In this document: piece by piece, positions 10,915-61,496 of the stretch
Numbering within the stretch: position 1 is the stretch's first letter
Layout of the letters: each line of letters starts with the position of its first letter
Origin: Candidatus Krumholzibacteriota bacterium
Lineage (GTDB): Bacteria > Krumholzibacteriota > Krumholzibacteriia > JAJRXK01
NCBI GenBank assembly: GCA_963764625.1
Contig: CAVXTH010000001.1
Location: forward strand, 32,001 to 96,000
Length of the DNA stretch: 64,000 nt
Direction of reading: 5' to 3'
Notes under the pieces: model-generated
What the model saw: only the letters and a program-made list of their open reading frames with translations
What the model was told of the DNA's origin: nothing
Database searches by the model: none
Translations under genes and position numbers: made by a program

Positions 10915-11450
10915 GCCCGTACCCCTCTCTCCTGAAGAAGGCGGCGGAATTTATGACGACAGCGGTAGAGGCGACGGTAGAGCACCGCCTCATCAAGTCC
11001 CGCGTCGCGCGCCAGGCGCCGGGGCTTTTCGCCCTCACCCAGGCGCCGCAAGAAACCCCAGCACTGCCGGTCGAGTTCTTCGAGCGCGGCCAGGGCCTCC
11101 GATACGAGTTCGCGCAATTCCTTTTGCTCGAGCGCCTCCGCCGGAGTTCCCTCCGCCCTGAGGCTCCCCGCCGGTTCGAGTTCGGTCTGGCCCTGCTCGC
11201 GCACGTGCCGCTGGTAGAAGTTGCCAATCGTGTTGCGCAGCACCTGAAAGCACCAGGCGATCGGAGGCAGTCCGTCGACCAATCGGGCCCCTTCGATTTG
11301 CCCCGCACGGCTCAGAACGGTGGCCATCGCCTCCTGGACCAGATCCTCCACTTCAGACGCGGGCACGCGACGGGCCGTCACCTCCAGGAAACGCTCCCGG
11401 AGCTCTCGGCTCCAGGTTTCGATGGCAGAGGTGTTCGAGACGCGGTCCAT
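10911..11450 (-). CDS. ECF sigma-70 factor
   Basis: EVEDLVQEA region 2, WCFQVLRN, region 4 HTH with RLYRCRHKFR. Confidence 0.85.
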   Translation of the reverse strand: MDRVSNTSAIETWSRELRERFLEVTARRVPASEVEDLVQEAMATVLSRAGQIEGARLVDGLPPIAWCFQVLRNTIGNFYQRHVREQGQTELEPAGSLRAEGTPAEALEQKELRELVSEALAALEELDRQCWGFLRRLGEGEKPRRLARDAGLDEAVLYRRLYRCRHKFRRLLQERGVRA

Positions 11451-11628
11451 CCTGGATTGTTTCCCTACGAGGAGAATCTCTCGCGGATTTCCGCGCGATG
11501 CTAGCAGAAGAGAGAAGAGCTCACCTAGCGGGCAATTGCGTTTCTTGTTCGCCCGTGCGCGGACGTGCTACACTGATTCTGGTCCCTTTCTCCCCCGAGC
11601 CGCCCGTGCCCCGCGCGCGAACGATGTT

Positions 11629-14145
11629 ATGAAGAAGCTCTCGATTCCGCCCTCTCCACCGCAAGGCGTCGCGCCGACCCTCCTGCGCCTGATTCATCTC
11701 CTTTGCTTCGCGCCGCTCTTGGCCCTCGTCTGGGCTCTCCCCGCCGCGGCGCAGGAAGAGGACCCGGTCCAGGAGGCGAGCCAGGCTCTCGAGGAGTATC
11801 GTCCCGATCTGGACCGCGACGCCACAGTGGCCCTGGCGAAACGGCTGGAAGAGCTGGAGACGCAGCTCTCCCCCGCACGGCACGACAGCCTACGCTCGAG
11901 GCTGCTCGAAATCGCGGGGCTGCTCTCCTTCCGCCATGGTGAGCTGGAGCACGCACGTGCGCTGTGGGAGAGGGGTCTTCAGGCCGCCCGCGACGCGAAT
12001 TCTCCCCAGCAGATCATGTCGCTGCTCAACATGAACGCAGTCGGGGTGAGTCAGGCCGGTGATTTTGAGCGTGGGATCGAACTCTTTCACGAGCTCACCT
12101 TGTTGCGTCACGAGCACGGCGATCGCCGGGGCGAGGGCATCGCCTGGAACAACATCGCCAATGCCAACATGCAGCTCAATCGACTGCCCGAGGCGACGGC
12201 CGCGGTCGACTCGGCCAAAGCCTGTTTCGAAGAGGTCGGCTTCGCGCGCGGCCTGGGCAACGTGTACGTCCTGCGCGGTCTCACTCTGCTCGAAATGCGC
12301 CGCAGCGAGGAAGCACTCGCTTCCTTCGACGCGGCGGCCGAGGTGGCCCGCGAGCTTCAGCAGAAGGACCTGATCGCCACCGCGCTGGCCAACCGCGGGC
12401 GCGTGAAGATGCTGCGCGGCGAACCCTACGAGCTGGCTCTGGCCGACGTCGATTCAGCGATCGCGCTCTGGCAGGAGATGGACAACCGCCATCAGCTTCT
12501 CATGGTGCGCATGATTCGCGGCGAAGTACTGGTGGAAACCGGACACGGGAAAGAGGGCCTCGATCTTCTGCAGGCAGTGCTGGCGCAGCGCAACGCGGCG
12601 GGGGAAGACTTCGACGCCCTGCCGGTTCGCAATCTCATCGGCGCGGCCTATCTGGAACAGAATCGCCTGGAGGAAGCGCGGAACTATCTGCAGGAGACTC
12701 TGACTCTGCTCGAGGAAATGCGCGCGCTGACCAAGGACGAACGCACGCGCATCGGTATCTACCGCCGCGGTGGCCTCGCCCATCGGGATCTGGCAGACGT
12801 TCTGATTCGAGAGGGCAAGATCGAGGAGGCCTGGGCGGTGGCCGAGCGAGGGCGGGCGTGGCTTTTGCGCGAACAGCTCACGCCCACGGGAGGCGCGGCC
12901 GCGATCATCGAGCTCGCCACCTTGCAGGCGCGGCTGGCCGACACGGGAGCCGTCTACGTCCACCTGTCCGAGCGCCTGGCCGGATCCAGCTTCGCCTTCG
13001 TGATCGACGGAGAAAACCTCGAGGTAGTGAGGATCTCGGTCCCCCACGAGCTCATGGCCGATCTGGAGATGGCCATCTATCAGATGGCCAACGGATCCCC
13101 CGACGAGTTGTGTGACCCCCCGCTCTCGCGTCTGGGCGCGGCCCTGATTCAACCCCTGATCCCGTATCTCCCCGAGGACGGACGCGGCGTCTTGTTCTCG
13201 CTTCCTTCCAACCTGAGCGATCTGCCGCTGGATGCCCTCCTCTACGAAGCCGACGGAACGGAGCGAGTCTTCGGCGAACACTACGCAACATCTCTGGTGC
13301 CCTCGGCCACGACCTGGGACGATTTGGAGGAGAGAGTCGCGCCGAGTGAGGGCGTCTTTGCGTTCGCCGATCCCACCCCACGCGTGGCGGCCGAGGAGGT
13401 GGGCGCAGTGACGCGTTTCCGCGACGTCTTGGCCCTTCCTCTGCCGCAGGCGCGCGAGGAAGCGCGCGCGGTGACACGGCGCGGCGGGCGTCAGCTCGTG
13501 GGCGAGGAAGCCTCCAAGCTACAGTTCCTCGACTTGATCGAGCGCGATCCCGGTGTGCTGCACTTTGCGACCCACGCGGTGGTGGATCCGGTGTACCCCG
13601 AGCAATCGGCCCTGCTTTTGGCCGGCGGCGAGGAGGATCGCCTGACCGCCGGCGAGATCGAGTCGCATCCCTTCCACACCGATCTGGTCACTTTGAGCGG
13701 GTGCCGCACCGGCGGCGGTTTGATGTACATCGGCGAGGGAACCCTCGGCCTGATGCGCTCCTTCTTCGTGGCGGGCGCACGGAGCGTGGTGATGTCGCGT
13801 TGGGACGTGGAGGACACCGCCGCGCGTCGCTTCATGGAAGTGTTCTACGCCGAGCTGGAGAAAGGTGAGGATCGCGCGGTGGCGATGAAGACCGCCCGTG
13901 CCCGCCTGCATCGCGAGGGCTTTCCCCACCGCGATCGTTCGGCCTTCGTGTTGGCCGGAGTGGCCACCGAGCCGGTGGCCTCGCTCTTGAACCGAAAAGA
14001 GCCGGGCTCGCTGCAAACCCGGCTCCTTCATCATCGCCGCGCTGATTCTGCTTTCGGGCTCCCTCCTCCGGCAGATCAGGCGTCGGCGAACGGGCGCCGC
14101 CGGCAGCTAGGCCTCCTTCGGCTCAACGTTGGACGCTGGCCGTGA
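11629..14145 (+). CDS. secreted TPR + CHAT (caspase-like) protease; true C-terminus probably frameshifted, ending at 14110
   Basis: signal peptide ending AAA-Q, TPR-like helices, LHFATHA and LSGCRTG His/Cys dyad, SRWDVED. Confidence 0.88.
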   Translation: MKKLSIPPSPPQGVAPTLLRLIHLLCFAPLLALVWALPAAAQEEDPVQEASQALEEYRPDLDRDATVALAKRLEELETQLSPARHDSLRSRLLEIAGLLSFRHGELEHARALWERGLQAARDANSPQQIMSLLNMNAVGVSQAGDFERGIELFHELTLLRHEHGDRRGEGIAWNNIANANMQLNRLPEATAAVDSAKACFEEVGFARGLGNVYVLRGLTLLEMRRSEEALASFDAAAEVARELQQKDLIATALANRGRVKMLRGEPYELALADVDSAIALWQEMDNRHQLLMVRMIRGEVLVETGHGKEGLDLLQAVLAQRNAAGEDFDALPVRNLIGAAYLEQNRLEEARNYLQETLTLLEEMRALTKDERTRIGIYRRGGLAHRDLADVLIREGKIEEAWAVAERGRAWLLREQLTPTGGAAAIIELATLQARLADTGAVYVHLSERLAGSSFAFVIDGENLEVVRISVPHELMADLEMAIYQMANGSPDELCDPPLSRLGAALIQPLIPYLPEDGRGVLFSLPSNLSDLPLDALLYEADGTERVFGEHYATSLVPSATTWDDLEERVAPSEGVFAFADPTPRVAAEEVGAVTRFRDVLALPLPQAREEARAVTRRGGRQLVGEEASKLQFLDLIERDPGVLHFATHAVVDPVYPEQSALLLAGGEEDRLTAGEIESHPFHTDLVTLSGCRTGGGLMYIGEGTLGLMRSFFVAGARSVVMSRWDVEDTAARRFMEVFYAELEKGEDRAVAMKTARARLHREGFPHRDRSAFVLAGVATEPVASLLNRKEPGSLQTRLLHHRRADSAFGLPPPADQASANGRRRQLGLLRLNVGRWP

Positions 14146-15827
14146 CGGTGCTCGCATCGTTCGTCGTGGTCGCATTGGTTCCGGCTACCTGCAGGCGCAA
14201 CTCCGCCAAAGCCTGACCCTGGCGCGCGAGCTGTTCGCTTTGCGCCTGGATCTGCCGCTGTTGCTCCTGCAGAGAGGCAATGAGCAGCGGAATCAATTCG
14301 TCGTACTCCACGCTCAGACTCTTCTGTTCGTCGTCGCCTTCGTGGACGATTTCGGGAACCACTTCCCGTAGCTCCTGCGCGATCAGTCCCAGCTGCCGTC
14401 CGCGCTCCGGCAGATCCTTCCAGCTGAAGCTCACCGGTCGTAGCTTCATCAGATCGTTCAAACCGTAGTCGAGGTCTTCGATGTTCTTCTTGAGACGGCG
14501 ATCCGACGGCGTGTCGACCGACATTGCATAGACGACGTTCCAGCGCTTGGCAGAGGATCCCAAATTCCACAGCGCGAAGGCCGAGGGCTCGACCGAACCC
14601 CCGAAGACCGAAGTGCGATCGCTCTGGTGGATCTGAAGGGCGGGAAGACTATTGGTGGCGGCGCGGAGGATGAAGTCATTGCCGTCGGCCACCGAATTGC
14701 GCAGGAACCACTTTTGGTTCACTCCGTTCTTGAGCACGATGTTGACGTCCGACGCGTTACCGCTCAACTCGAAGGTGTCATCCGCGGTGAGAACTCCCCC
14801 GATGTTGAATCCACTGGCGGTCCCGTAAATGCCGTCGAGCATCCACTGGAGTCCGGAGGAGTAGATTCCGGCGGTGACCAAGCCGGCCCCGGACTCGCCC
14901 AGGTCGAACCACTTGGTGAATTCCAACTTCGAGGGGCTCAGACGCACTCCCAGATCTTCGAAGGGCGCCGTGCCGGTGCCGGTGTCCCTTCCCAAGAGGA
15001 TCTCGTTGGCCTGACTGGAAGAATTCAGGTGCAGAAGCGCGTCGGGCGCACTGGTGCCGATCCCCACCTGGCCGCTCGGTTCGATCGCCAGGCGCTCCGC
15101 GCCGCCGTTGGTGATCGAGAACACGCTCTGAGGACTCTGCTCCATCACGAGTCCCCACGAACCGCCCGAAGTCATGCGGATCGCGACCGGGACCTCGATC
15201 GGGGTGTGGATGTCCAGTTTTTGCGCCGGAGTGGAGGTGCCCAGACCGACGTTCCCACTGACCCCGAGCTCGAGATCGTTCCCGTTGATGGTCCAGTCGC
15301 CGTCGGATCCGCCGCCGGTGTTCGCGTTGATGGTGAGCGTATTTCCGCTGGGCACCACGCTGACGTTGGTCCCGCCCACCAGGCTCACCGCTCCCTTGAG
15401 ACCGTTGAGCGTCTTCACCGCGGCCTGATCGTCGACGGCCAGGGCGTAGGGAACGGAGGAGAGTTCACTGCGTGGAGTGAGTTCGCTGCCTCCATCCACC
15501 ACCAGGGCCAGCCAGAGACTCTGGTCGAAATCGACCGAGCCCATGGACGTCACCGAACCCAGGGTGGCCTCGGCGAGCCCGTCTACCAGGTCGAGCACTT
15601 GCGTCTCTTCCCAGAGTTTGGTTCCCGCCGACGGGTCGTCGTACAGGCGGAAGACGATGGTGTGACTTCCCTGCAAGCGCGACCCCGCTGCCGTCTTCGA
15701 CGATTCCCTGCCAACCGATGGTCTGAGGAACCGCGGCGTGGGCGCGGGGTGTTAGCGATGCGAGGGGGGCGAGCGCCGCGAGGAACGCGAACATCAAGAT
15801 GAGTGCGAAGTAGGCAAACCGGCGCAT
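14123..15827 (-). pseudogene. secreted tail-fibre-like protein with C-terminal S74 intramolecular chaperone, split by a +1 frameshift near 15675
   Basis: signal peptide + VPQTIGWQG in ORF 15465-15827 continues as QGSHTIVFRLYD in ORF 14123-15676; GNVGLGTSTP repeats; SDRRLKKNI...LRPVSFSWK; coiled coil. Confidence 0.8.
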
Positions 15828-15859: not shown

Positions 15860-16396
15860 TCAGCGCGCGAGGACCAGGCGCCGGACTTGCTCGAAACCGG
15901 GAGCCTTGAGTTGGTAGAAGTAGACTCCGCTCGCCAGATCGGCGGGAGCGAAGACGAGACTGTGTTCTCCCGCGCTCTGCGTCTGGTTCACCAGGGTGGC
16001 CACGCGCCGTCCACGGACGTCATAGAGGCTGAGCAAGACGTGTCCGTCCGCAGGAAGCGCGTAGCTGATGGTGGTGCGGGGGTTGAAGGGATTGGGATGG
16101 TTCTGGTCCAGGCGATAGCTCTTGGGCAGCGTGGGCGTCGGATCCTCCACCGCGGTGGCCGGGCCCTTTCTCTCCTTCGACAAAAAACCATGGCGTACGG
16201 TGATTTGTCCGTCGCTGGCCGTACCCGTCGCCGGTTGACCCAGAGTGAGCAGGACTTCTCGACCGCTTCGGGAGGCCCTTTTGCCACCGGAAGTGATGAC
16301 CTTGCGCTTGAGTTCCTTTTCCAACGGCGCGGTGGCCCCTAACGCGATCGCGAAGAGGACTGCCAGGCTGAGCAGGACCAGGAAGCGTCGGAGCAT
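15860..16396 (-). CDS. small secreted protein with T9SS-A/FlgD-like C-terminal sorting domain
   Basis: signal peptide; LDQNHPNPFNPRTTISY...YDVRGRRV...LASGVYFYQL. Confidence 0.85.
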   Translation of the reverse strand: MLRRFLVLLSLAVLFAIALGATAPLEKELKRKVITSGGKRASRSGREVLLTLGQPATGTASDGQITVRHGFLSKERKGPATAVEDPTPTLPKSYRLDQNHPNPFNPRTTISYALPADGHVLLSLYDVRGRRVATLVNQTQSAGEHSLVFAPADLASGVYFYQLKAPGFEQVRRLVLAR

Positions 16397-16612
16397 GTCC
16401 GCTTCCTCCTCGATCGGCACCGGGGGGAAGGTCTCGGGGCCGCTTCTCCTGTCTCATTTGGGGTGGACGGAAATCTCCCGCGTGAATTTCCGAGGCGCGG
16501 ATTGAAGAGCGAGAGCGGTCTGTCGTATACTCGCTGCAGGCTCCCAGCCACCTCAACCGTCACTTCGGATGCCCGTTCGCGGGCGAACTCTCCGAAGGGA
16601 ATTGGGTGAGCC

Positions 16613-58011: not shown

Positions 58012-58060
58012 GACAAAAAGAAAAGGCCGGCCCCTGAGATGGCCGGCCTCTCTTTTTGTC
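58012..58060. terminator. bidirectional intrinsic terminator
   Basis: GACAAAAAG..AGGCCGGCC/GGCCGGCCT..CTTTTTGTC between convergent genes. Confidence 0.85.
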
Positions 58061-58095: not shown

Positions 58096-59172
58096 CTACT
58101 TCGTCGGAATTGCCGTTCCCACGCAGGGATAATCGGTCTGCGCCGGGTTGAACGGATGCGTGTTGACGCTGGCGTTGTCGTAGCACAGAGATTGCACGCC
58201 GAAGACCATGCTGTAGGCCTGATAGCCCAGCATGTTCAGGCACACCGTCACCTGCGCAGAGGTCTGTCCGGTCCAGCAGTAGGTCAGGATCTTCTGATCT
58301 ACCGGCAGAGTGTTCAGAGTGTTGTCGGTCTGCAGACTGCTCTTGGGTGCGTACTGCACCGCAGTGGGCATGTGACCGGCGTCATACTCCGTCGTGGGGA
58401 AGTAGTTCACCACGTACCAGGTGCCATCGTCGGCTGCGATCGAGTCGTAGACATTGCTGATCCCGCGCGAATTCCAGCCGGTGCCGAATTCGTTGTAGGC
58501 GCCCTTCACGTAGGCATCCGCGCGCGCTTTCAGAATGTCCAGGCCCGTGCCCAATCCGGTGCCGAGCTCCGGATAGCTGCCGGCGGAATTGCAAGCACAG
58601 GGGTCCGGGGTCATCCAGGCGCCATAGTCGCTGGAGAGTTTGGTCGTGTAGTCCGTGCCGCTGTAGCTGGTGTCCGAAGTCCAGCCGCTCATTCCGAAGG
58701 CAAGGTTCACGGCGTCAAAGCCCATGTCGATTCCCAGGAGGTTCATGATGGCGGTCGCGGTGCTCGCGGTCTGCCCGGTGTAGCACACGTTGCAAATGGG
58801 CTTGTCGGTGGGGAAGTCCCCGGCATTCACGTGATCGATGATCTCCGACAGCGACCAGTTTACCGCGCCTGCGATGTGTGCGTTGTCGTACACTGCGGAA
58901 GAGCGCCAGTCGACGACGAAGTAGTCGTCGGCGGGATCCGTGTTGCCAAAGTTTGCGTTATAGAGTGCCTGAGCCGAGATGTTGATCCCCAGACCGCGGT
59001 TGGGGGTGACATAGGTGCTCAGATAGGCATCGGTATACGGCGAAACCAGCGAGAAGCCGTCCGCCGCGGGAGGTGGTGTCGTTCCGCCATCGTCACTACT
59101 GCAACCGATGAAGGCGAAAACGAGGATCATCGTACTGGCAAGAAGCAGTTTGCTCCAAGTACTGCGATTCAT
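58096..59172 (-). CDS. tandem rhodanese (sulfurtransferase) lipoprotein
   Basis: lipobox FIGC; VVDWR..HIAGA..CYTGQTA and GHMPTA..CWTGQTS, two active-site Cys loops. Confidence 0.88.
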   Translation of the reverse strand: MNRSTWSKLLLASTMILVFAFIGCSSDDGGTTPPPAADGFSLVSPYTDAYLSTYVTPNRGLGINISAQALYNANFGNTDPADDYFVVDWRSSAVYDNAHIAGAVNWSLSEIIDHVNAGDFPTDKPICNVCYTGQTASTATAIMNLLGIDMGFDAVNLAFGMSGWTSDTSYSGTDYTTKLSSDYGAWMTPDPCACNSAGSYPELGTGLGTGLDILKARADAYVKGAYNEFGTGWNSRGISNVYDSIAADDGTWYVVNYFPTTEYDAGHMPTAVQYAPKSSLQTDNTLNTLPVDQKILTYCWTGQTSAQVTVCLNMLGYQAYSMVFGVQSLCYDNASVNTHPFNPAQTDYPCVGTAIPTK

Positions 59173-59263
59173 GGTCTTTCCTTTCCTGTTCTGCAATGAC
59201 CGGGCTTTTCAGGAAGGGAAGCTCCCCGAAGAACCCGGCCACTCACTGTGGTGATCCTCTCGA

Positions 59264-60613
59264 TCACCAGGATGAATTCGGTGCCCCGCCGGGCACCACG
59301 AGAGTCTGATTCGCTTGCTGCTCGGCCGTGGGCAGAGCAGACAGATCCGAGGCGCGGAGAAAGAAATCCACCGGCCCGTTGAATGAGTTGTGGCATGCGT
59401 CGAGGCAGGGCTTCCCCTCATCCACGGTCGTGCGATCCGTCCAACGCCTAATGTTGTGCGGCGTGGCCAATTTCCACGTCGGCTCGCTACTGAAATTGGG
59501 CAAGGTGCTCATGCCCCACGCCGCGTAGGTGTCTTCCACCACTGGTACGTGACGCAAGACCACGTATTTCTCCGACCGGATGTCCGACCTGGGGTTGTAG
59601 CCGATCTTGAAGGTCTCGTACGAAGAGCCGGTGATTCCCTGTCCCGCGTGACAACCGTTGCAGCTCTTGTAGTTCTGGCTGTGACAGACCTGACAGGCGA
59701 ACTGCGACATGTGGGTCGTGTGATAGACGTTGTCCCACTGGTTGTCGATGCCCGGGCCGTGACAGTCGGTGCATTGAGCCAAACCCGGCGCCTCGTAGCG
59801 AGACTGCGGAGCGCTTCCATCGCCGTGCATGTCGGCGCCGTCATGGCAATCCGTGCAGCTCATGGCCAGAGGAACGCGGTGGTAGTCGGCCCCGGCGTAG
59901 TCATTGTTGCCGTAGTACTCGTCGCCCACCCGCGAACCGTGACATGCGGTGCAGTTCTTCACCATGTCGGGAGTGCGGTTTACCCGGTGCGCTTTCACCA
60001 ATCCGCCACCCACCGGTTTCGGCGAGGAGATATGGCAGTCGCCGCAGCTCACGTGACAGCCTCCACATGCCGATTGGAAACCCGCCATGTAGTTTGGACT
60101 GTCGCTGATTTTCGCGCCCGAGCGCTTCTCGAACAGCGCGTAGTAGCCAGCTTGGGTGTAGTGAATGGCGTCCTCGTATGATCCGTGCGTGCCCGCGTGA
60201 CAGTCCAGACACTTGTTGTTGGGACCATCACTGGGGTCAGCGATCAAGCCCACGTGCGCGTCATCCTTAGTGTTCGTGCCGCTCTGTCCCCCGTGGCACT
60301 CGATGCAGCTGATCGTGCCGTGCACGCTGGCCAAGAATGCGGCTCCGTCGGTACCGTCGATCAAAACCTTTTTCCATCCCTCCACCGGAGGGATCGATCC
60401 GCCTCAACCCTCCCCCGTATCTGCGGGAAGCGTATCCGGCAGGGCAGTGGCGATCAGCATGCCTTGGTTGGTGTGGCAGCCCTCGCAGGTGGCGACCTGC
60501 AGCAGGGGGCCACTCCCGCCGTCGTTGCCGGAATCGCTGTTGCCACAGCCCCAGAGGCCACCCAAGGACAGTGATCCGGCGGCAAGCCAGAACAGGAATT
60601 TGCGTGAAATCAT
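59264..60613 (-). CDS. selenocysteine-containing multiheme c-type cytochrome lipoprotein (UGA at 60404-60406 read as Sec, codon 70)
   Basis: lipobox LWGC, CEGCH, in-frame TGA joining the two ORFs, then 9 more CXXCH plus CLDACH; SECIS-like hairpin. Confidence 0.82.
60376..60394 (-). promoter_or_regulatory. putative bacterial SECIS element
   Basis: ATCCCTCC-GGT-GGAGGGAT; loop G follows the UGA after 17 nt. Confidence 0.75.
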
Positions 60614-60629
60614 GTCAGTGGCTCCCTTC

Positions 60630-61298
60630 TCAGTTCTCCGCTTCCGGCGTCGACTGGATTGCGGAGTCATTTGTGTGGTTTGCGGTTTCCTCGGGGACCT
60701 CGGCCAGAAGCCCCCGCGCGAAAATGGGTACGTTGTTGCAGATGATGTCGAGGGTCTCGTAGGTGACGTCTTCGAGCTTGTTCCAGAACTCGGCATTCAC
60801 CGCGCATCCGATTACGAGTCCGACGTAACAGCGCGCGGTGATACCCGGATCGACCTTGCGCAGCTCTCCGCTCTCGATCCGCAGTTGGAATTCCTTGGCC
60901 AGGAAGTTTACGTAGGGCATGCGGAACTCGCGCAACAGCTTCGCGGCCGCGTCGTCGTCGGTGGCCGAGGTCATCAGAAGGAGTCGGAGAAGCTGAGGAT
61001 CCTGCTGCGCGGTGGAGAGCAGGTGAAGCGACACGGCGCGCAGGAGGTCTTCGACCGAGCCCAGGGAGCTCAGAGTTTCCAGGTAGGAGCTGATCGCCAG
61101 TCCACGCGAGCGCGATTCCACTGCTTTTTCGAAAAGATCGAGTTTGCTGGGGAAGTGCCGATAGATGGCCGCCGCGGTGATGCCCACCTCCTCGGCCAAC
61201 TGGCGCATGGAGGTGCCGGCGTAGCCTTGCCGGGAAAAGTGCTGAAGGGCGACCTCGAGGATCTGGTCCCGGCGCGAAAGTTTGGACAGCGCAGGCAT
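60630..61298 (-). CDS. TetR/AcrR regulator heading the cytochrome-rhodanese operon
   Basis: RRDQILEVAL..FSRQGYAGTSMRQLA...IYRHFPSK; start estimated at MPALS. Confidence 0.9.
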   Translation of the reverse strand: MPALSKLSRRDQILEVALQHFSRQGYAGTSMRQLAEEVGITAAAIYRHFPSKLDLFEKAVESRSRGLAISSYLETLSSLGSVEDLLRAVSLHLLSTAQQDPQLLRLLLMTSATDDDAAAKLLREFRMPYVNFLAKEFQLRIESGELRKVDPGITARCYVGLVIGCAVNAEFWNKLEDVTYETLDIICNNVPIFARGLLAEVPEETANHTNDSAIQSTPEAEN

Positions 61299-61381
61299 CG
61301 CGGGGCCCTCGCAAGCAGAAGAGGAAACGGTCTGTTTCTTTCGTACTGACGGTGAATCCCCTGACTTTCGCCTGCAAGGAG

Positions 61382-61496
61382 AAAGTAAACAGTTCTTCAC
61401 TTTGTTTCGGTGGGAAATCTGTAAACGCGTTAAGTGCCTATGGCAGGCTTTATTTAGCCAATATAACCATCATGTGAAGTAAACGATCGCTTAACA
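61382..61496. promoter_or_regulatory. AT-rich promoter region with repeated GTAAAC imperfect palindromes (candidate TetR operators)
   Basis: AAAGTAAACAGTTCTTCACTTT, GTAAACGCGTTAAG, AAGTAAACGATCGCTTAAC. Confidence 0.5.

Follow-up and report, generated by a model that had tools for sequence, protein, structure and literature searches.

MccSep (also ExtKL, GSU2937-2936) of Geobacter sulfurreducens, published in 2026, is the only multiheme selenoenzyme to have been characterised, and it answered a long-standing question of Geobacter sulfur respiration. It is reported to be a five-heme periplasmic selenoprotein in which selenocysteine (Sec) 325 adjoins a heme ligated by Cys239, and to act as a polysulfide reductase that is needed for sulfur respiration, with selenite being reduced less efficiently and thiosulfate and tetrathionate not being reduced (PMC13510729). 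The ext cluster also encodes a rhodanese-like lipoprotein (ExtH), a porin (ExtI), and the 12-heme ExtM, the function of which is described as uncharacterised (PMC5877670). Here, we analyse a three-gene operon encoding a TetR-family regulator, an 11-heme c-type cytochrome with an in-frame UGA at codon 70, and a tandem-domain rhodanese. It lies in a stretch of 64,000 nucleotides from a Candidatus Krumholzibacteriota bacterium (contig CAVXTH010000001.1, positions 32,001 to 96,000), and this whole stretch is hereafter referred to as the window. The cytochrome-rhodanese pair looks like an undescribed selenium-dependent system that reduces sulfur compounds.

A 2026 review names ExtKL, GSU2204, and octaheme tetrathionate reductase (OTR) as the cytochrome-type selenoprotein families (PMC13188914), none of which is matched by the window cytochrome. 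In the case of Dethiobacter alkaliphilus, sulfur and thiosulfate reduction without molybdenum enzymes was reported in 2023, along with a multiheme gene that neighbours rhodanese genes and was described as "misidentified as a thiosulfate sulfurtransferase" (PMC10376724). This gene (DealDRAFT_1917) may belong to the present family, in which case the family had been encountered before and its selenocysteine had gone unnoticed. In the literature searched, an 11-heme selenoprotein with a GEGUGG motif was not described, though the homologues listed in the supplements of PMC13510729 could overlap with this family.

Selenocysteine and heme signatures of the cytochrome

Relatives of the operon were collected by scanning one genome per species, which gave at least 577 confirmed loci in these species-representative genomes. 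The best 80 (L001-L080) were kept and are the basis of every count out of 80 given below, and the phylum labels (approximately 16) are those deposited with the records. The Melioribacter and Caldithrix loci in this set come from metagenome-assembled genomes of uncultured organisms. The cytochrome also has more than 1,256 homologous proteins in the databases, and 120 of those listed were examined; by either count, the family is common. We take it to be an independent family of multiheme selenoproteins that is widespread, almost constantly accompanied by a rhodanese (77/80), and systematically mis-annotated.

That the TGA at codon 70 encodes selenocysteine is well supported by comparison of the aligned loci. 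The codon at this position is TGA in 67 of the 80 (65 scored by script, and L062 and L076 by eye), TGT or TGC in 11, and neither in the remaining two. The surrounding motif, G-x-G-U-G-G...P-L-E-x-W, is conserved, and both the reading frame and the conservation of residues run on past the TGA in all 67. Cysteine (Cys) is found at the same site in database proteins P0070 and P0065. When a tree was built from 81 cytochrome sequences, the Cys forms fell into an Ignavibacteriota/Bacteroidota clade of 10 (support 100), with one more nested among Sec forms; on this topology, Cys forms arose at least twice. The two loci with neither residue at the site, L007 (4916-6205, GEGEIRGG) and L029 (7001-8284, TARGGDG), are each sister to a Sec form.

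A selenocysteine insertion sequence (SECIS)-like hairpin follows the UGA and occupies columns 13-31 after it. Across 65 distinct sequences, 77.9% of the cells in this stem are paired, and in 36 cells both partners have changed, as against 9.4 ± 2.7 in shuffled alignments (none of 500 shuffles was as high). Controls in which the partner strand was slid gave 36-52% pairing, which is below the true register. Pairs 15-29 and 16-28 alternate between GC, CG, AU, and UA, and some of these swaps exchange the encoded residues (P..A to A..P). An alternative register, columns 16-23 with 27-34, was rejected for want of covariation support, though 18 sequences do fold in this way.

TGA is an ordinary stop in 14 of the 30 Pfam-supported genes of the window, including that of the cytochrome gene itself, so that the recoding is specific to this site and not the product of an altered genetic code. 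The part of the cytochrome that follows the TGA contains 10 heme motifs and no signal peptide. Heme attachment needs export, yet this part has no signal of its own, which argues against the TGA being a stop. Among the 120 listed homologues, 117 extend over no more than 84% of the query, starting immediately past the TGA; gene callers evidently cut the family there. Two of the three longer homologues have Cys at the site. Eleven of the 120 have been given the name "thiosulfate/3-mercaptopyruvate sulfurtransferase" (Joint Genome Institute annotation) despite having no rhodanese domain, which is the misnomer also noted for the Dethiobacter gene.

The cytochrome possesses 10 CXXCH motifs and one CX3CH motif, and all 11 are conserved in the 81 sequences. 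The lipobox Cys is present in each of the 45 rows of the alignment that reach that column. The export signal and heme motifs, together with a match to PF14522 (E 4.1e-7), are those of a multiheme c-type cytochrome. Outside the motifs, nine histidines (His) are conserved at 98% or more and one further at 88%, and neither a Met, a Lys, nor a further Cys is conserved across the 81 sequences; the sole conserved non-heme thiol or selenol is therefore the Sec/Cys at position 70. Since 11 motifs are matched by only nine such His (plus the one at 88%), at least one heme is without a conserved His as its sixth ligand. Such a heme, which cannot be bis-His, points to a multiheme enzyme with a catalytic role and not to a pure electron carrier.

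No Pfam or NCBIfam model matched the cytochrome at its cut-off. The best NCBIfam matches of the window protein are to the DmsE family (E 4e-4) and ExtM (E 9e-3), and the ExtKL model (NF040886) was unmatched at E ≤ 0.01 and likewise at E ≤ 0.1. When 55 members of the family were searched, weak matches to ExtM (NF040943, cut-off 800 bits) were found in 41, the best of which (E 2.4e-12) is far under that cut-off. The OTR model TIGR04315 was weakly matched by seven of the 55 (best E 3.8e-6), with the window protein unmatched. A single-sequence search of the PDB gave nothing useful. With a profile of the family, the best PDB match was OTR (1sp3, E 2.9e-6), followed by the NrfA nitrite reductases. 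An AlphaFold2 model built from a 55-row alignment (predicted local distance difference test, pLDDT, 82.6; predicted template modelling score 0.79) found 1sp3 as its only notable PDB match in Foldseek (E 2.5e-3, probability 0.98, template modelling [TM] score 0.35). The cytochrome is thus a remote relative of multihemes that reduce sulfur compounds.

A second cytochrome clade, separate from that of the window, is found in Krumholzibacteriia and their allies (L033, L037, L042, L051, L056, and L074). In its members, an insertion brings additional CXXCH motifs, and a TetR gene and two tandem rhodanese genes are often present, with an MtrB/PioB-like barrel upstream in five loci.

Rhodanese partner, gene layout, and regulation

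The active-site loop of a rhodanese consists of six residues starting with Cys. The window rhodanese belongs to this family (PF00581), having two domains with the six-residue loops C130-YTGQT and C299-WTGQT. Among 52 aligned sequences, the two loop Cys are kept in 100% and 98%, and the lipobox Cys, C24, in 98%. Searched against the PDB, the rhodanese profile finds generic thiosulfate sulfurtransferases, the best being 1yt8 (E 1.3e-21). The ExtH model (NF040901, cut-off 200 bits) was matched neither by the window rhodanese (E ≤ 0.01) nor by that of L035, and the four-domain form of L068 scored 16 bits.

Using tblastn with the window rhodanese, a homologue on the same strand and within 500 nt of the cytochrome gene was found in 68 of the 80 loci, on the downstream side in 59 and on the upstream side in 9. 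Of the other 12, two have such a rhodanese at a distance of approximately 1.3 kb, and in 10 tblastn found none. Seven of those 10, and both of the loci with the distant copy, carry a four-domain rhodanese directly downstream (approximately 573 amino acids [aa], PF00581 E 1e-77) that was too diverged for the first tblastn search. A rhodanese is thus the direct neighbour of the cytochrome at 77 of the 80 loci, under approximately 16 phylum labels, with L028 (where the contig ends), L007, and L075 as the exceptions. The four-domain partner is exemplified by L068 (8417-10138) and L046 (8549-10276) and is shared by seven other Anaerolineales/Chloroflexota loci.

The first-pass annotation of the window had proposed that homologues would be co-located with rhodaneses, and this prediction survived the comparison. 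It had also noted two catalytic loops (CYTGQT and CWTGQT), the Cys of which are kept as given above. The parallel that it drew with the Geobacter ext cluster is real, in that the rhodanese-like ExtH is reported to be clustered with the selenoprotein ExtKL (PMC5877670). The extra CAC that it saw in the linker (residues 192-194) is indeed present; it is kept in 4% of the 52 sequences and was set aside as a key feature, being real and probably irrelevant.

Three candidate fusions were considered. P0127 is a genuine single lipoprotein open reading frame that joins the cytochrome to a PKD domain and two rhodanese domains, with the Sec/Cys motif absent. P0126 was rejected, as its internal lipobox and lost last heme motif indicate that two genes have probably been merged by error. 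A third protein, P0124, joins the cytochrome to a cytochrome b domain. A complex prediction for the Cys-type pair of L035 (cytochrome residues 22-446 and rhodanese residues 29-338, with alignments) scored 0.00, which is evidence neither way.

An acidic run after the lipobox Cys resembles the export signal of Bacteroidota surface lipoproteins. Such runs are seen in the window rhodanese (residues 24-30, CSSDDGG; 59083-59103) and in the Bacteroidota locus L035 (6944-8284 and 8339-9355), where the sequences are CSEDD and CSDDDD. The pair may therefore be displayed at the surface in some lineages.

All features with coordinates are collected in Table 1. The three genes, tetR, cytochrome, and rhodanese, run in one direction on the minus strand (58096-61298). 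Only 16 bp (60614-60629) separate the tetR stop from the cytochrome ATG at 60613, and 91 bp (59173-59263) lie between the cytochrome stop and the rhodanese ATG at 59172. The hairpin at the end of the operon separates the rhodanese gene from the convergent topA and would terminate both; a terminator scan of the region gave only two sites, one on each strand of this hairpin, with 3.3 expected from shuffles. A scan of the operon region for sigma-70 promoters found none. Both enzymes are predicted lipoproteins on the basis of their lipobox signal peptides.

Table 1. Coordinates of operon features in the window and of barrel genes in related loci
Feature	Position	Strand	Details
TetR-family regulator P0002	61298-60630	-	222 aa; PF00440 E 1.2e-16
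11-heme c-type cytochrome, predicted lipoprotein	60613-59264	-	449 residues including Sec70; lipobox Cys23 (LWGC); stop 59266-59264
In-frame UGA, codon 70, GEG-U-GG	60406-60404	-	TGA-as-U reading; site conserved
SECIS-like hairpin	60394-60376	-	8-bp stem AUCCCUCC/GGAGGGAU, loop GGU, 12 nt past the UGA; covariation
Tandem-domain rhodanese P0001, predicted lipoprotein	59172-58096	-	358 aa; PF00581 E 3.8e-17, two stretches; lipobox Cys24 (FIGC); stop 58098-58096
Bidirectional intrinsic terminator	58021-58052	both	12-pair stem (8 GC), T-rich tail each side
Candidate TetR operator	61382-61403	.	22-bp palindrome AAAGTAAA-CAGTTC-TTCACTTT, 84 bp upstream of tetR ATG
Outer-membrane-type barrel in related loci	L019:8813-10057; L024, L020, L012, L050, L054, L009, L011, L007		
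Outer-membrane-type barrel, remaining loci	L073, L021, L065, L022, L031, L029		

The regulator has the PF00440 helix-turn-helix of the TetR family and three Cys in its C-terminal domain. C157 and C165 are kept in 12 of 12 aligned sequences and C187 in 10 of 12; the third Cys, being less conserved, was rejected as a key feature. The pattern AAAGT-N12-ACTTT has one match in the 64 kb, where 0.00 would be expected, and this match is the candidate operator palindrome. The same motif stands at the same position upstream of tetR in L001 and L002, the two closest relatives. Taken together, the Cys pair and the palindrome suggest that TetR may be a thiol-based sensor. A second palindrome, TAAACGATCGCTTA (61480-61493), lies farther upstream of tetR and is found in L001 and not in L002.

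All the features that the first-pass annotation gave for this layout can be seen directly in the sequence, namely three co-directional genes with gaps of 16 and 91 bp and a closing terminator, two enzymes that are predicted lipoproteins (their lipoboxes being LWGC and FIGC), and a TetR protein with three Cys (157, 165, and 187) in its C-terminal domain. Its description of the operon as "TetR-controlled" needs more care. The tetR gene does belong to the operon, but the wording is too strong, since control is read from gene order and a candidate operator and tetR stands beside the pair in just 10 of the 80 loci, mostly Krumholzibacteriia. Other loci have other regulators, including PAS-sigma54 activators (22 loci) and LysR proteins (8 loci). 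Because regulators vary by lineage, the conserved core is the cytochrome-rhodanese pair, with TetR as a local addition. The PAS-sigma54 activators, counted by clustering, lie upstream of the cytochrome (e.g., L009:4808-6139, L065:5448-6782, and L014:4439-6208), and in 7 of 17 examined the PAS domain has a C-x8-C-x3-C pattern, a possible redox or sulfur sensor in place of TetR.

Several loci carry additional respiratory genes near the pair. These include cytochrome b561/FdnI-type subunits (21 loci), further multiheme cytochromes (17 and 9 loci), and iron-sulfur proteins (9 loci). These b561/FdnI subunits, iron-sulfur proteins, and further multihemes are the quinol-side parts in other lineages. 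In 15 loci, the pair is followed by an outer-membrane-type barrel of approximately 400 aa with no Pfam or NCBIfam match, a gene that the window does not have. Its AlphaFold2 model has approximately 22 strands, and in the PDB it is closest to porins and ushers of the outer membrane (E approximately 1e-9).

The remaining genes of the window are housekeeping genes, and no second cytochrome gene was found elsewhere in the 64 kb. Farther away, a Peptidase_S74 (endosialidase-chaperone) domain protein (14123-15676) is close to a small protein that ends in a Por secretion tail (15860-16420), and a CHAT-TPR protein (11320-14145) is adjacent; none of these is related to the operon.

Proposed mechanism and competing explanations

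In Wolinella succinogenes, the periplasmic rhodanese-type polysulfide-sulfur transferase Sud feeds the polysulfide reductase Psr. Our preferred reading of the present locus, which we would place just on the probable side, is of a lipid-anchored two-protein system for the reduction of sulfane sulfur outside the cytoplasm, a Sud-Psr division of labour built from MccSep-like chemistry. The rhodanese lipoprotein would load sulfane sulfur, drawn from polysulfide or elemental sulfur and possibly from thiosulfate, in persulfide form at C130 and/or C299. It would hand this sulfur to Sec70, a selenolate in a Gly-rich, probably mobile loop of the cytochrome. Reductive cleavage of the resulting Se-S adduct would then release sulfide, the electrons being supplied along the heme chain to the putatively catalytic heme that is not bis-His. 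Such a reductase would be located in the periplasm or at the cell surface. TetR would repress the operon from its candidate operator, and sulfane sulfur on the conserved Cys pair may release it.

A more specific proposal, which we regard as quite possible though short of probable, is that this is an independent second family of heme-selenium enzymes in which Sec70 stands at, or even ligates, the heme that is not bis-His and which, together with a rhodanese with two active sites, forms a molybdenum-independent reductase of elemental sulfur, polysulfide, and thiosulfate.

There are several observations that the reader should set against the preferred reading. In two loci, L007 and L029, the site is occupied neither by Sec nor by Cys, and P0127, the fusion, is without the motif. 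The folding energy of the hairpin is only slightly better than that of synonymous-codon shuffles (mean z -0.63) and several Cys forms retain a hairpin, so the stem is likely to be dictated in part by the peptide. No selA, selB, selD, or tRNA-Sec gene was found within the 64-kb window, and a Rfam scan of it returned three tRNAs only (Glu, Gln, and Met), with no SECIS family among the matches. The window operon also encodes no electron donor, such as a quinol dehydrogenase. The heme-ligating Cys239 that is conserved in MccSep has no counterpart in the present family, where no non-heme Cys beyond the Sec/Cys site is conserved. The Sec loop (residues 61-80) has the lowest confidence in the folded part of the model (pLDDT 64-74), and the likeness to OTR is weak (TM 0.35), with conflicting alignment registers. 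The comparison establishes the gene layout, the selenocysteine signature, the close pairing of cytochrome and rhodanese across phyla, and the distant relationship to multihemes acting on sulfur compounds, and to this extent it supports the first-pass interpretation; the enzymatic role is argued from sequence, predicted structure, and analogy.

The same two proteins could act on thiosulfate or tetrathionate, or could even run oxidatively, as TsdA or SoxAX do, oxidising thiosulfate or sulfide with the hemes as the outlet for electrons. It speaks for this explanation that the best structural and profile relative of the cytochrome is a tetrathionate reductase, that rhodaneses are by definition thiosulfate sulfurtransferases, and that some of the neighbouring cytochrome b subunits weakly resemble the cytochrome b subunit of thiosulfate reductase. 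Dethiobacter, with its thiosulfate reduction and multiheme-rhodanese neighbours (PMC10376724), would be a further case if homology were confirmed. However, MccSep, the sole characterised multiheme selenoprotein, is reported to be inactive with both compounds (PMC13510729), and the Cys required for a TsdA-type His/Cys-ligated heme is not conserved. The direction of electron flow is not readable from sequence, and we consider this explanation unlikely, if well worth keeping in mind. Reduction of selenite or tellurite, for detoxification or respiration and with the rhodanese carrying selenium, strikes us as improbable. The closest NCBIfam model is that of ExtM from a "selenite/tellurite reduction operon", weakly matched in 41 of 55 members, MccSep does reduce selenite at lower efficiency (PMC13510729), and rhodanese can reportedly carry selenium (a work cited in PMC5877670). 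Against these stand the facts that selenite is the poorer substrate of MccSep, that even the best ExtM match falls far below 800 bits, and that the broad spread of the family through sediment and sulfidic lineages suits plentiful sulfur better than scarce selenium.

One might also expect a lipid-anchored multiheme protein to be a mere conduit of electrons for extracellular metal reduction, with the rhodanese serving cofactor synthesis or other sulfur trafficking. Both proteins are indeed predicted lipoproteins, an MtrB/PioB-like barrel lies near the pair in five loci, and there are weak matches to the DmsE and MtrC families. A conserved Sec would be unprecedented in a pure electron carrier, though, and a rhodanese adjoining the cytochrome across phyla argues for a joint function; given also that one or more hemes are without a conserved His ligand, we hold this explanation to be more improbable still. 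Least credible, and in our judgement very nearly dismissible, is the suggestion that the TGA is a true stop separating a small monoheme lipoprotein from a ten-heme protein, or marking a pseudogene. Gene callers split 117 of the 120 listed homologues in just this manner and the window has no Sec machinery, but a stop would not account for frame and residue conservation across the TGA in 67 loci, for Cys codons at exactly that site in 11, for compensatory changes in the hairpin that follows, or for a downstream part without the signal peptide that heme attachment needs.

Significance and comparison with described systems

If the more specific proposal is correct, an enzyme family of sediment and subsurface bacteria has been overlooked because the gene is cut at its UGA and the remnant is named a sulfurtransferase by some pipelines, and the pair could be the missing sulfur reductase of sulfur respirers that have no Psr or Phs enzymes. 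The pair provides a candidate for sulfur and thiosulfate reduction in Krumholzibacteriota, Calditrichota, KSB1, Eisenbacteria, and Anaerolineales, lineages without a cultured or characterised sulfur reductase. Recognising the family corrects a systematic annotation error, and its Sec and Cys forms offer a natural series of pairs for asking why selenium is preferred.

Of the described systems, Sud-Psr resembles the proposed scheme in passing sulfur from a rhodanese carrier to a terminal reductase, and the rhodanese profile weakly matches Sud itself (1qxn, E 8e-4). The differences are that its reductase is a molybdoenzyme and not a heme-selenium protein, and that Sud is a soluble single-domain protein and not a tandem lipoprotein. 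OTR (1sp3; TIGR04315), a periplasmic multiheme reductase of a sulfur compound, is the best PDB relative of the cytochrome by both profile and fold; it has eight hemes compared with 11, the TM score is only 0.35, and the TIGR04315 model is touched by 7 of 55 members, all below its cut-off. OTR is not known to have a rhodanese partner. ExtM has in its favour that its NCBIfam model is the one matched by the largest number of members (41/55) and that it is encoded together with ExtH and MccSep in Geobacter. It differs in having 12 hemes and 599 profile positions and in not being known as a selenoprotein, and the present family scores far below its cut-off of 800 bits. The approximately 22-strand barrel that follows the pair in 15 loci echoes the porin ExtI of that cluster.

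MccSep remains the closest comparison. Both it and the window cytochrome are multiheme c-type cytochromes with one Sec in a flexible loop, shown to be catalytic in MccSep and predicted to be so here; both are encoded in a cluster with a rhodanese-like lipoprotein, and in both the Sec forms predominate and Cys forms are derived. They differ in the number of hemes (5 in MccSep and 11 in the window cytochrome) and in the placement of Sec, which is residue 325 of a C-terminal Ig-like domain (DGUP) in MccSep and residue 70 of an N-terminal loop (GEGUGG) here. The window proteins fail the ExtKL (NF040886) and ExtH (NF040901) models, and the phyla in which the family is found differ from that of Geobacter. 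The two families thus share an idea, namely hemes, one Sec, and a rhodanese neighbour, and not an ancestry, which suggests that sulfur chemistry using selenium on a heme scaffold arose more than once.

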